NCBI RefSeq assembly: GCF_003334305.1 | Contig: NZ_QOWS01000007.1 | Reading direction: 5' to 3' (one strand) | DNA length: 64,000 nt | DNA from: Escherichia coli | Lineage (GTDB): Bacteria > Pseudomonadota > Gammaproteobacteria > Enterobacterales > Enterobacteriaceae | Shown: in pieces, positions 2,126 through 7,080 of the stretch | How positions within the stretch are numbered: position 1 is the first letter of the stretch | Layout: every line of letters starts with the position of its first letter | Position numbers and translations under genes: made by a program | Notes under the pieces: model-generated | Databases searched by the model: none | Told to the model about the DNA's origin: nothing | Seen by the model: only the letters and a program-made list of their open reading frames with translations

Positions 2126-3004
2126 TTACAGCAAACCGGCATGCTTAAGCGCCGCTCTGACCGTCTCACGACCACTGTCGGTGATTGGTGTCATTGGCAG
2201 GCGCAGCGTATCGGTCGCCACAAGACCCAGTTCCTTACATGCCCATTTCACCGGGATTGGATTGGGTTCGACAAATAGTTTGTTGTGTAATGGCATCAGA
2301 CGCTGATTAATAACGCGTGCCTCGGCAAAATGCCCTTCTGCTGCCAGTTTGCACATCTGGGCCATATCACGCGCTGCGACGTTAGCCGTAACGGAAATAA
2401 CCCCATGACCGCCCAATTGCATGAAGTCCAGCGCGCTCGCATCATCGCCGCTCAGCAGAACAAAATCATCTGAAACCAGCTCTTTGATCTGGTTTACACG
2501 CGTTAAGTTCCCTGTTGCCTCTTTGATTCCGATAATATTTTTTACTTTCGCCAGACGGCCCACCGTTTCCGGGAGCAGATCGCAGCCAGTACGGGACGGC
2601 ACATTATACAGAATTTGCGGCAGGTCAGTATGCTCAGCGATGGCTTTGAAATGCTGATACAAACCTTCTTGCGACGGACGATTGTAGTAAGGGGTTACCG
2701 TCAGGCAGCCGACGATACCACTGTCATTGAAGCGCTGCGTCAGGCTAATGGCTTCCGCAGTAGCGTTAGCGCCGGTCCCGGCAATTACCGGAATGCGCCC
2801 ATCAGCCAGCTCCAGCGTCATCATCACCACATCAGCATGTTCGTCATGATTTAAGGTAGCGGACTCGCCAGTGGTGCCAACAGAAACGATCGCCGAAGTA
2901 CCGCTGGCGACATGATAATCAATCAGTTTTTTCAAGCTAGCCCGACAGACATTACCTTTTTCATCCATCGGAGTAACAATCGCGACAATACTTCCCGTGA
3001 ACAT
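2126..3004 (-). CDS. dapA: 4-hydroxy-tetrahydrodipicolinate synthase
   Basis: ORF 2126..3022 recognised as DapA; start trimmed to [17 protein letters not shown] (292 aa). Confidence 0.93.
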
Positions 3005-3149
3005 GGGCCATCCTCTGTGCAAACAAGTGTCTCAATGGTACGTTTGGTATGGCATTAAAAGCAAGCAGACAGAACCGTTCTGATTGTTGTATGCATGTTT
3101 TTTTTATGCTTTCCTTAAGAACAACTCACCCCTTAAAGGAATAACCAGT

Positions 3150-3722
3150 TTGACACTGTCATCGCAACATTATCTGGTGATCACTGCGTTGGGTGCCGAT
3201 CGCCCTGGAATTGTGAACACCATCACCCGTCATGTCAGTAGTTGCGGCTGTAATATTGAAGACAGTCGCCTGGCGATGCTGGGAGAAGAGTTCACGTTTA
3301 TTATGCTGCTTTCCGGTTCATGGAATGCCATTACTCTGATTGAATCAACGTTACCGTTGAAAGGTGCCGAACTGGATCTTTTAATCGTGATGAAGCGCAC
3401 GACGGCGCGTCCGCGTCCGCCAATGCCAGCATCTGTCTGGGTTCAGGTCGATGTGGCAGACTCCCCGCATTTAATTGAACGCTTCACAGCACTTTTCGAC
3501 GCGCATCATATGAACATTGCGGAGCTGGTGTCGCGCACGCAACCTGCTGAAAATGAACGGGCTGCGCAGTTGCATATTCAGATAACCGCCCACAGCCCCG
3601 CATCTGCGGACGCAGCAAATATTGAGCAAGCGTTCAAAGCCCTATGTACAGAACTCAATGCACAAGGCAGTATTAACGTCGTCAATTATTCCCAACATGA
3701 TGAACAGGATGGAGTTAAGTAA
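3150..3722 (+). CDS. gcvR: glycine cleavage system transcriptional repressor (ACT-domain protein)
   Basis: ORF 3084..3722 contains the GcvR sequence; likely TTG start at 3150 giving about 190 aa (MTLSSQHYLVITALGADRPGIV...). Confidence 0.8.
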   Translation: MTLSSQHYLVITALGADRPGIVNTITRHVSSCGCNIEDSRLAMLGEEFTFIMLLSGSWNAITLIESTLPLKGAELDLLIVMKRTTARPRPPMPASVWVQVDVADSPHLIERFTALFDAHHMNIAELVSRTQPAENERAAQLHIQITAHSPASADAANIEQAFKALCTELNAQGSINVVNYSQHDEQDGVK

Positions 3723-4192
3723 TGAATCCACTGAAAGCCGGTGATATCGCACCGAAATTTAGCTTGCCGGATCAAGACGGAGAACAAGTTAATTTGACCG
3801 ACTTCCAGGGACAGCGTGTTCTGGTTTATTTCTACCCGAAAGCCATGACCCCCGGCTGTACCGTACAGGCCTGCGGCTTACGCGATAACATGGATGAGTT
3901 GAAAAAAGCGGGCGTTGATGTGCTGGGTATCAGCACCGATAAACCCGAAAAACTCTCCCGTTTTGCGGAAAAAGAGCTGCTTAACTTTACGCTCCTGTCT
4001 GATGAGGACCACCAGGTGTGCGAACAATTCGGCGTCTGGGGTGAAAAGTCCTTCATGGGCAAAACCTACGATGGCATTCATCGCATCAGCTTCCTGATTG
4101 ACGCTGATGGCAAAATCGAACATGTCTTTGACGATTTCAAAACCAGCAATCACCACGACGTTGTGCTGAACTGGCTGAAAGAACACGCCTGA
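3722..4192 (+). CDS. bcp: thiol peroxidase / peroxiredoxin Bcp
   Basis: 156-aa ORF with peroxiredoxin PGCT motif; ATG shares one nt with the gcvR stop (TAATG). Confidence 0.92.
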   Translation: MNPLKAGDIAPKFSLPDQDGEQVNLTDFQGQRVLVYFYPKAMTPGCTVQACGLRDNMDELKKAGVDVLGISTDKPEKLSRFAEKELLNFTLLSDEDHQVCEQFGVWGEKSFMGKTYDGIHRISFLIDADGKIEHVFDDFKTSNHHDVVLNWLKEHA

Positions 4193-4387
4193 TTACTTTG
4201 CTCCATTCCGTGCTGGCTGCGCTTGCGGCCAGCATACCTCACTTCTCGTGATCAAGATCACATTCTCGCTTTCCCCTGCGACACGGGTGTCGAATCCATT
4301 TTTTGCTGAACGTTAATGACCATCATTTTTGTACCGTTCAGAATCCAGTCAATACATAACTTATTGAATATATTGAGTTAATCAGAA

Positions 4388-4403
4388 TGGCATCCTTTAT
4401 GCA
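4388..4403 (+). promoter_or_regulatory. sigma-54 (-24/-12) promoter of the hyf operon
   Basis: TGGCAT-N5-TATGCA with GG and GC 12 nt apart, matching the TGGCAC-N5-TTGCA consensus, about 40 nt upstream of the hyfA ATG. Confidence 0.55.
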
Positions 4404-4444
4404 ATATGAAATGCAATGTTTCATATCATTTTCAAGGAGCCGAC

Positions 4445-5062
4445 ATGAACCGCTTTGTGGTGGCCGAACCACTGTGGTGTACAGGATGTAATACCTGTCT
4501 CGCTGCCTGTTCGGACGTGCATAAAACGCAAGGTTTACAGCAACACCCGCGCCTGGCCCTGGCGAAGACGTCAACACTCACTGCCCCTGTCGTGTGTCAT
4601 CACTGTGAGGAAGCCCCTTGCCTGCAGGTCTGCCCGGTTAATGCCATCTCCCAGAGGGATGATGCGATCCAACTCAACGAAAGCCTCTGTATTGGCTGCA
4701 AGCTTTGCGCCGTGGTCTGCCCATTTGGCGCAATCAGCGCTTCAGGAAGCCGTCCGGTGAATGCCCCTGCGCAATATGTTTTTCAGGCTGAAGGCTCACT
4801 CAAAGACGGCGAAGAAAACGTGCCGCCCCAACATGCATTGCTGCGCTGGGAACCGGGTGTCCAGACCGTCGCGGTGAAATGCGACCTGTGTGATTTCTTG
4901 CCAGAAGGTCCGGCCTGCGTTCGCGCTTGCCCGAATCAGGCGTTACGGCTGATCACCGACGATAGCCTGCAACGACAGATGAAAGAAAAACAGCGCCTTG
5001 CCGCAAGCTGGTTTGCCAATGGCGGGGAGGATCCCCTTTCCCTCACTCAGGAGCAACGCTAA
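4445..5062 (+). CDS. hyfA: hydrogenase-4 component A, 4Fe-4S ferredoxin-type subunit
   Basis: ORF 4406..5062; start at MNRFVVAEPLW after an AAGGAG RBS; multiple CxxCxxCxxxCP ferredoxin motifs; 205 aa. Confidence 0.9.
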   Translation: MNRFVVAEPLWCTGCNTCLAACSDVHKTQGLQQHPRLALAKTSTLTAPVVCHHCEEAPCLQVCPVNAISQRDDAIQLNESLCIGCKLCAVVCPFGAISASGSRPVNAPAQYVFQAEGSLKDGEENVPPQHALLRWEPGVQTVAVKCDLCDFLPEGPACVRACPNQALRLITDDSLQRQMKEKQRLAASWFANGGEDPLSLTQEQR

Positions 5063-7080
5063 TGGATGCCCTGCAATTATTAACCTGGTCGCTGATCCTC
5101 TATCTGTTTGCCAGTCTGGCTTCGCTGTTTTTACTCGGTCTGGACAGACTGGCTATTAAGCTTTCCGGCATCACATCGCTGGTGGGCGGCGTGATTGGCA
5201 TCATCAGCGGAATTACGCAATTACATGCTGGTGTAACTTTAGTCGCCCGTTTTGCCACCCCTTTTGACTTTGCCGATTTTACCCTGCGAATGGATAGCCT
5301 CTCGGCATTTATGGTGCTGGTTATCTCCTTGCTGGTGGTGGTTTGTTCGCTCTATTCATTGACTTATATGCGCGAATACGAGGGCAAAGGCGCGGCGGCG
5401 ATGGGCTTCTTTATGAATCTTTTCATCGCATCGATGGTTGCCCTGCTGGTGATGGACAACGCTTTTTGGTTCATCGTGCTGTTTGAAATGATGTCGCTGT
5501 CTTCCTGGTTTCTGGTCATTGCCAGGCAGGATAAAACGTCGATCAACGCTGGCATGCTCTACTTTTTTATCGCCCACGCCGGATCGGTGCTGATTATGAT
5601 CGCCTTCTTGCTGATGGGGCGCGAAAGCGGCAGCCTCGATTTTGCCAGTTTCCGCACGCTTTCACTTTCTCCGGGGCTGGCGTCGGCGGTGTTCCTGCTG
5701 GCCTTTTTCGGTTTTGGCGCGAAAGCCGGGATGATGCCGTTGCACAGCTGGTTGCCGCGCGCTCACCCTGCCGCACCATCGCACGCTTCGGCGTTGATGT
5801 CTGGCGTAATGGTCAAAATCGGTATTTTCGGCATCCTGAAAGTAGCGATGGACCTGCTGGCGCAAACGGGTTTGCCGCTGTGGTGGGGCATTCTGGTGAT
5901 GGCGATCGGCGCAATCTCCGCGCTCCTGGGCGTGCTGTATGCGCTGGCGGAACAGGATATCAAACGGCTGCTGGCCTGGAGTACCGTCGAAAACGTCGGC
6001 ATTATTTTGCTGGCAGTCGGTGTGGCGATGGTCGGTCTGTCACTGCACGACCCGCTGCTCACCGTGGTTGGACTGCTCGGCGCACTGTTTCATCTGCTCA
6101 ACCATGCGCTGTTCAAAGGGCTGCTATTTCTCGGCGCGGGCGCGATTATTTCGCGTTTGCATACCCACGACATGGAAAAAATGGGGGCACTGGCGAAACG
6201 GATGCCGTGGACAGCCGCAGCATGCCTGATTGGTTGCCTCGCGATATCAGCCATTCCTCCGCTGAATGGTTTTATCAGCGAATGGTACACCTGGCAGTCG
6301 CTGTTCTCACTAAGTCGTGTGGAAGCCGTAGCGCTACAACTTGCGGGTCCTATTGCTATGGTAATGCTGGCAGTCACTGGTGGGCTGGCAGTAATGTGCT
6401 TCGTAAAAATGTACGGTATTACTTTCTGTGGTGCGCCGCGCAGTACACACGCTGAAGAGGCACAGGAAGTGCCAAATACGATGATCGTCGCCATGCTACT
6501 GCTCGCGGCACTCTGCGTATTAATTGCGCTTAGTGCCAGTTGGCTGGCACCGAAGATAATGCATATTGCCCATGCGTTTACCAATACCCCTCCCGTCACT
6601 GTCGCCAGCGGAATAGCACTTGTACCCGGCACGTTTCATACACAGGTCACCCCCTCATTACTGTTGCTGTTACTACTGGCGATGCCTTTGCTGCCTGGCC
6701 TTTACTGGCTGTGGTGTCGTTCGCGCCGCGCAGCGTTTCGTCGCACAGGAGATGCCTGGGCATGCGGCTACGGCTGGGAAAATGCGATGGCCCCGTCAGG
6801 CAATGGCGTGATGCAGCCGCTGCGTGTGGTCTTCTCTGCGTTATTTCGTCTACGACAACAGCTCGACCCTACGCTGAGGCTAAATAAAGGTTTTGCGCAC
6901 GTCACCGCCAGGGCTCAGAGCACAGAACCCTTCTGGGATGAGCGGGTGATCCGCCCCATCGTGAGCGCCACCCAACGGCTGGCCAAAGAAATACAGCATC
7001 TGCAAAGCGGCGACTTTCGTCTCTATTGCCTGTATGTGGTCGCCGCACTGGTTGTGCTGCTAATCGCTATTGCCGTCTAA
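5062..7080 (+). CDS. hyfB: hydrogenase-4 component B, NuoL/MnhA-like membrane subunit
   Basis: 672-aa polytopic membrane ORF with the antiporter-like motif KRLLAWSTVENVG. Confidence 0.92.
   Translation: MDALQLLTWSLILYLFASLASLFLLGLDRLAIKLSGITSLVGGVIGIISGITQLHAGVTLVARFATPFDFADFTLRMDSLSAFMVLVISLLVVVCSLYSLTYMREYEGKGAAAMGFFMNLFIASMVALLVMDNAFWFIVLFEMMSLSSWFLVIARQDKTSINAGMLYFFIAHAGSVLIMIAFLLMGRESGSLDFASFRTLSLSPGLASAVFLLAFFGFGAKAGMMPLHSWLPRAHPAAPSHASALMSGVMVKIGIFGILKVAMDLLAQTGLPLWWGILVMAIGAISALLGVLYALAEQDIKRLLAWSTVENVGIILLAVGVAMVGLSLHDPLLTVVGLLGALFHLLNHALFKGLLFLGAGAIISRLHTHDMEKMGALAKRMPWTAAACLIGCLAISAIPPLNGFISEWYTWQSLFSLSRVEAVALQLAGPIAMVMLAVTGGLAVMCFVKMYGITFCGAPRSTHAEEAQEVPNTMIVAMLLLAALCVLIALSASWLAPKIMHIAHAFTNTPPVTVASGIALVPGTFHTQVTPSLLLLLLLAMPLLPGLYWLWCRSRRAAFRRTGDAWACGYGWENAMAPSGNGVMQPLRVVFSALFRLRQQLDPTLRLNKGFAHVTARAQSTEPFWDERVIRPIVSATQRLAKEIQHLQSGDFRLYCLYVVAALVVLLIAIAV

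Follow-up and report, generated by a model that had tools for sequence, protein, structure and literature searches.

GcvR of Escherichia coli binds GcvA and glycine and represses gcvTHP, according to Ghrist, Heil & Stauffer as cited in PMC7382830. An alternative start codon in place of AUG typically cuts translation several-fold (PMC5622118), and in cyaA of E. coli a weak UUG keeps a regulator scarce (Reddy et al. 1985, as cited in PMC5622118). Stop/start junctions with -1 spacing are a known and enriched type (review PMC12548453; PMC6728339), and tight translational coupling was found in four of five tested overlapping E. coli pairs even with a Shine-Dalgarno (SD) sequence, so that the presence of an SD does not rule out that a downstream gene needs translation of the gene before it (Huber et al. 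2019, PMC6728339). With weak-UUG genes of the cyaA type, gcvR shares a UUG start, a good SD and a regulatory product of low abundance. With the coupled overlapping pairs (PMC6728339, PMC12548453), gcvR-bcp shares co-directional genes, a TAATG junction and a downstream SD within the upstream gene, but it differs from them in that GcvR and Bcp are not subunits of one complex and that the downstream product, Bcp, is about 6-9 times more abundant.

The window, a stretch of 64,000 nucleotides of E. coli DNA, contains the dapA / gcvR-bcp / hyf region, with bamC-dapA on the minus strand and gcvR-bcp-hyfA and onward on the plus strand. Many E. coli chromosomes match positions 2950-4250 at 100% identity, and every one of 5426 complete genomes contains the segment; gcvR (b2479, P0A9I3) and bcp (b2480, P0AE52) of E. 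coli K-12 occupy the same locus without differences. RefSeq (PGAP) places gcvR at 3150-3722 on the plus strand (WP_000176187.1, 190 aa, TTG start, stop TAA at 3720-3722) and bcp at 3722-4192 on the plus strand (WP_001068682.1, 156 aa, thioredoxin-dependent thiol peroxidase). The gcvR product is a glycine cleavage system transcriptional repressor by RefSeq and by the NCBIfam equivalog NF008612 / PRK11589, which scores 397 bits (cutoff 267) and places all of its 189 positions (1-189) on residues 23-211 of the 212-aa open reading frame. Its tandem ACT-type domains are represented by Pfam PF13740 (ACT_6), PF01842 (ACT) and PF13291 in precomputed assignments on close homologues. NCBIfam NF006960 (Bcp / PrxQ) scores 309.9 bits (cutoff 140), with profile positions 1-155 of 156 on residues 1-155 counted from ATG 3722. 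The Bcp translation contains KAMTPGCTVQACG, that is, a TPGC motif and a second Cys five residues on; from family knowledge, we take the TPGC Cys to be peroxidatic and the later Cys to be resolving. Judged from their sequences, GcvR and Bcp are the canonical proteins. The TTG start of gcvR and its 1-nt overlap with bcp are both present in the RefSeq annotation and in curated family models, and are already known; our result re-derives the standard annotation, and neither point changes current understanding.

We compared the window with 80 Enterobacteriaceae loci from species-representative genomes and six loci from Yersiniaceae, Dickeya, Erwinia and Edwardsiella. The codon aligned with TTG 3150-3152 (plus strand) is TTG in 87 of 87 loci, window counted. 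It lies in frame with the longest open reading frame (3084-3722, 212 codons), 22 codons into it. In 30 of the 87 loci a stop codon precedes any upstream in-frame ATG, GTG or TTG, leaving the aligned TTG as the sole start at or upstream of this position; in Erwinia the stop sits only 6 codons 5' of it. An SD sequence, AAGGA (3136-3140, plus strand), lies 9 nt before the TTG; the hexamer at -14 to -9 is AAGGAA, CAGGAA or TAGGAA in all 87 loci, with AGGAA invariant, and in 77 of 77 distinct upstream sequences 3136 lies exactly 14 nt before the TTG. Position 1 of the NF008612 profile falls on residue 23 of the long open reading frame, which is TTG 3150. The tandem-ACT GcvR homologue of V. cholerae (PDB 1U8S) aligns with the 190-aa form from residue 6 to residue 183 (E=5e-39) and has an equally short N-terminus, without the extension. 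GTG 3177 (codon 10) was rejected as a start, the codon being GTT, GTC or GTA in 77 of the 87 loci. As in other UUG-initiated genes, an SD within range and conservation among orthologues coincide in gcvR with the lack of a viable alternative start.

Initiation at TTG 3150 is strongly supported by every one of these comparative tests. An earlier note made from the sequence alone had proposed this start, and it is upheld by the 87 loci, the SD, the edge of the family profile and RefSeq; the alignment of orthologous N-termini that it suggested as a check favours TTG 3150 in all 87. It also placed the beginning of the open reading frame at 3084, 22 codons upstream of 3150, which is correct, and called the codon there ATG, which is not: the codon is TTG. 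No in-frame ATG exists between the stop at 3081-3083 and 3150, so the upstream ATG that the note named as the competing start is a nonexistent codon. Translation of gcvR would begin at UUG 3150 by way of the AAGGA 9 nt upstream and yield the 190-aa repressor. The UUG start was reportedly mapped by experiment by Ghrist & Stauffer in 1998, with the main transcription start said to lie ~27 bp upstream of the UUG. Among the papers searched, none names gcvR together with UUG and none contains 'gcvR-bcp', and the supplements of tetracycline ribosome profiling hold no entry for gcvR or bcp.

The segment taken by the ORF finder as a 22-codon extension (3084-3149, plus strand) has the character of a non-coding 5' region: it lacks codon periodicity, carries indels and lies outside the family profile. 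Its 22-residue translation, LYACFFYAFLKNNSPLKGITS, contains no Met, and the upstream start candidates are only TTG 3084 and TTG 3087. Variability per codon position is 0.128/0.166/0.156 upstream of the TTG and 0.103/0.052/0.259 in the gcvR CDS; the third-position excess is present downstream of the TTG and absent upstream. Within the segment, a near-invariant block of 29 nt, TTGTATGCATGTTTTTTTTATGCTTTCCT (3087-3115, plus strand), keeps its length in 77 of 77 sequences from Escherichia to Yersiniaceae and Edwardsiella. It is followed by a leader segment (3116-3135, plus strand) of 19, 20, 21, 24, 32 or 34 nt among the 77 distinct sequences, and because this length varies, 25 of the 77 are shifted out of the E. 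coli frame inside the extension.

The block at 3087-3115 is probably the gcvR core promoter. If it is, the codons at 3084 and 3087 would lie no further downstream than the -35 region and would not be part of the main mRNA. The best-spaced -10 candidate inside the block, TTTCCT, does not carry the key A in second place. Since a consensus promoter scan of 2900-4450 returned no plus-strand promoter, the assignment is one that we infer; for gcvR, Shimada 2014 gives only a predicted promoter, TTAAAA-18-TCTGAT. The 66 nt from 3084 to 3149 would accordingly read as promoter and leader, not as coding sequence.

It is extremely improbable that GcvR is instead a protein of 211 or 212 aa that starts at TTG 3084 or 3087 and bears N-terminal peptides such as MLYACFFYAFLK... 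In E. coli no stop interrupts the frame from 3084 on, and long GcvR entries do exist for Salmonella and Klebsiella orthologues: P0002 (212 aa), which stands for a cluster of 810 sequences, and P0061 (211 aa). Against such a protein, neither TTG 3084 nor TTG 3087 is preceded by an SD, stop codons 8-12 codons upstream of the TTG break the extension in ~30 species, the frame is shifted in 25 of the 77 distinct sequences, the extension reaches beyond the curated GcvR profile, and 3087-3092 belong to a block that is conserved as DNA and not as codons. The comparisons indicate that database entries of 201-212 aa are over-extended. Orthologue entries (P0002, P0006, P0010, P0061) show at least three N-termini, giving 190 aa, ~201 aa (from an upstream ATG) or 211-212 aa (from the far TTG). 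The practical value of the 190-aa, TTG-initiated GcvR, which the comparative data give as the correct form across Enterobacterales, lies in annotation quality, as databases still carry over-extended versions, for instance the 212-aa Salmonella cluster of 810 sequences and, from other genera, versions of 201-211 aa.

Two other elements were noted 5' of gcvR. An upstream open reading frame of 12 codons (ATG 3106 to TAA 3144) stops 5 nt short of the gcvR TTG. It is probably located 5' of the main transcription start and was rejected as a regulatory leader peptide, the frame not being conserved (in Citrobacter it stops after 4 codons). In the dapA-gcvR intergenic region a second near-invariant block (3034-3066) includes, on the minus strand, TTGCTT (3064-3059), an 18-nt spacer and TACCAT (3040-3035), plausibly the dapA promoter, ~25 nt upstream of the dapA ATG (3004).

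Beyond the 87 loci, a relative with 68% identity (L088) has GTG at the start position after the same GGCAGGAAG motif, and three relatives with 41-44% identity have an ATG start. By these comparisons, the weak gcvR start is a conserved trait of Enterobacterales. One base change of the TTG would give AUG or GUG, yet TTG is retained, which suggests selection for low GcvR output. The UUG would be maintained by selection across Enterobacterales, most likely to keep GcvR scarce, and an expression effect of altering it was reportedly described by Ghrist & Stauffer in 1998. The locus offers a clean example of a selected weak start codon on a low-copy regulator.

At the 3' end of gcvR, the last A of the stop codon TAA (3720-3722) is also the first letter of the bcp ATG (3722-3724), which gives the junction TAATG (3720-3724, plus strand), exactly as the earlier note had described. 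The order gcvR-to-bcp with divergent bamC is kept in every locus examined, distant ones included, as is dapA except in one (L091). The 86 compared junctions comprise TAATG in 67, TGATG in 3, ATGA in 4, gaps of 2-3 nt in 10, a 23-nt overlap in 1 (Erwinia) and a 19-nt gap in 1 (Edwardsiella), so that a 1-nt overlap is found in 70 of 86 and the -4 form in 4 of 86. In the three relatives at 41-44% identity the genes are separated by 10, 48 and 74 nt. The same 1-nt overlap occurs in 3 of the 34 co-directional adjacent pairs in the first 50 kb of the window, namely gcvR/bcp, hyfA/hyfB and purM/purN. The gcvR/bcp overlap is real and conserved, but it is an ordinary type of junction.

The 1-nt overlaps of hyfA/hyfB and purM/purN lie at 5062 and 25477, respectively, and further overlapping pairs are hyfH/hyfI (-4), hyfI/hyfJ (-8) and hyfF/hyfG (-11). 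A 331-aa GcvR-Bcp 'fusion protein' labelled Astraeus odoratus (P0030) is an enterobacterial contaminant in a fungal assembly, in which a eukaryote-style gene model spliced away the stop/start junction together with the first ~14 bcp codons.

The earlier note had read coupled translation from the overlap. Drawn from geometry, this is a possibility of a generic kind, and a stop/start overlap by itself is no demonstration of translational coupling. The bcp start has an SD sequence of its own, GGAG (3711-3714, plus strand), located inside gcvR codons 187-189 at a distance of 7 nt from the ATG; 85 of 86 loci have an SD-like core between -16 and -4 relative to the bcp start. The codon for gcvR G188 is GGA in 99% of sequences, and the last 9 gcvR codons have the lowest synonymous diversity in the gene. 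RNA folding of the junction gave no excess stability relative to shuffles (z -0.46, +0.19), and in a consensus fold of the junction from 19 species none of 17 pairs was compensatory (covariation term +0.37). A conserved hairpin masking the bcp start was rejected, there being no covariation. As no conserved structure was found, the bcp start would need no unwinding by ribosomes that translate gcvR.

In the absolute proteome of Mori et al. 2021, Bcp accounts for ~3-6e-4 and GcvR for ~5-9e-5 of proteome mass across conditions. With proteins of similar size, this corresponds to a ~6-9-fold molar excess of Bcp over GcvR in steady-state levels, as distinct from synthesis rates. By termination-reinitiation, each termination on the upstream gene can give no more than one initiation on the downstream gene. 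With Bcp at 6-9 times GcvR and a maximum of 1:1, reinitiation is therefore disfavoured as the main source of Bcp, and the ratio could also stem from instability of GcvR or from an internal promoter for bcp. Among the features expected of coupled pairs, the co-directional arrangement with -1 or -4 overlap is present in gcvR-bcp; no local structure that would block a de novo start at bcp was found, and the downstream output, in steady-state levels, is not at or below that of the upstream gene.

We attach little probability to strict coupling, in which bcp translation would come almost entirely from ribosomes that have finished gcvR immediately before and Bcp output would be tied to GcvR. The 1-nt overlap in 70 of 86 loci, with ATGA in 4 more, and the precedents of an enriched -1 class (PMC12548453) and of 4/5 tested E. 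coli pairs (PMC6728339) speak for strict coupling; the ~6-9-fold excess of Bcp, set against reinitiation at no more than 1:1, and a bcp SD under synonymous-site selection with no conserved structure to block de novo initiation speak against it. Nor does strict coupling fit the gaps of 2-3 nt (10 loci), 19 nt (Edwardsiella) and 10-74 nt (distant relatives), across which gene order is unchanged. Coupling is compatible with the geometry of the overlap, but the evidence favours an initiation of bcp that is for the most part independent. Translation of bcp would rest mainly on de novo initiation at its own GGAG and AUG in the last gcvR codons, and ribosomes ending gcvR would add at most a minor share by reinitiation.

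At the level of transcription, bcp is most likely co-transcribed with gcvR, because the 1-nt overlap leaves no room for a terminator. A consensus scan returned no plus-strand terminator-like site from the gcvR start to the bcp start. In the same type of scan, a terminator-like hairpin with a T-rich tail downstream of bcp (4279-4302, plus strand) is a candidate end of the gcvR-bcp transcript, and the sole other plus-strand match lies inside bcp (3805-3824). Both genes are slightly up after acid shock, a response too weak to show co-transcription, and the SMRT-Cappable-seq supplements hold no gcvR entry.

The 3' part of gcvR (3618-3719, plus strand) has reduced synonymous variation; it covers the region where bcp is initiated and may contain a further embedded element. 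In the last ~34 gcvR codons, class-centred synonymous heterozygosity is -0.113, versus +0.042 in codons 11-156 (MWU p=2.5e-5), and the reduction holds for codons 157-181 alone (p=0.004). Invariant within this stretch are TGTACAGAA (3645-3653) and GGCAGTAT (3666-3673; reading TATAAA in many species). Positions 3618-3719 yielded no covariation-supported RNA structure. The low variation could reflect an initiation region that is longer than usual, a promoter for bcp inside gcvR, or a binding site.

These signals bear on a reading that we hold to be rather unlikely, in which a promoter of its own in the 3' part of gcvR drives most bcp expression, the overlap being compact packing and the genes largely uncoupled at both levels. 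Such a promoter would agree with the excess of Bcp over GcvR and with a constraint that reaches codons 157-181, beyond the ribosome-binding site, and includes the invariant TGTACAGAA and GGCAGTAT. It is at odds with the consensus scan of 2900-4450, which gave no plus-strand promoter, and with the best hexamer pair, TGTACA / TATTAA, whose elements are 20 nt apart; moreover, the different initiation efficiencies of UUG and AUG on one mRNA could produce the ratio alone. Only tentatively do we suggest that the signal at 3618-3719, TGTACAGAA with GGCAGTAT(A/T)AA, may be an internal promoter or regulator site that sets bcp independently of gcvR. If this is true, the strictly conserved UUG would likewise serve to hold GcvR low and Bcp high throughout Enterobacterales, with both genes in a single compact locus.

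Our preferred reading, which we consider highly probable as a whole, is that gcvR would start at UUG 3150, that 3084-3149 would be non-coding, that the UUG would serve low GcvR output, and that bcp would be co-transcribed with gcvR and initiated mainly de novo.

Two observations concern the annotation downstream of bcp. The hyfA start is ATG 4406 by the ORF finder and 4445 in RefSeq, and hyfB (5062-7080), an intact open reading frame of 672 codons in the window, carries a frameshift flag in the RefSeq record of ER1709 from which the annotation was taken.
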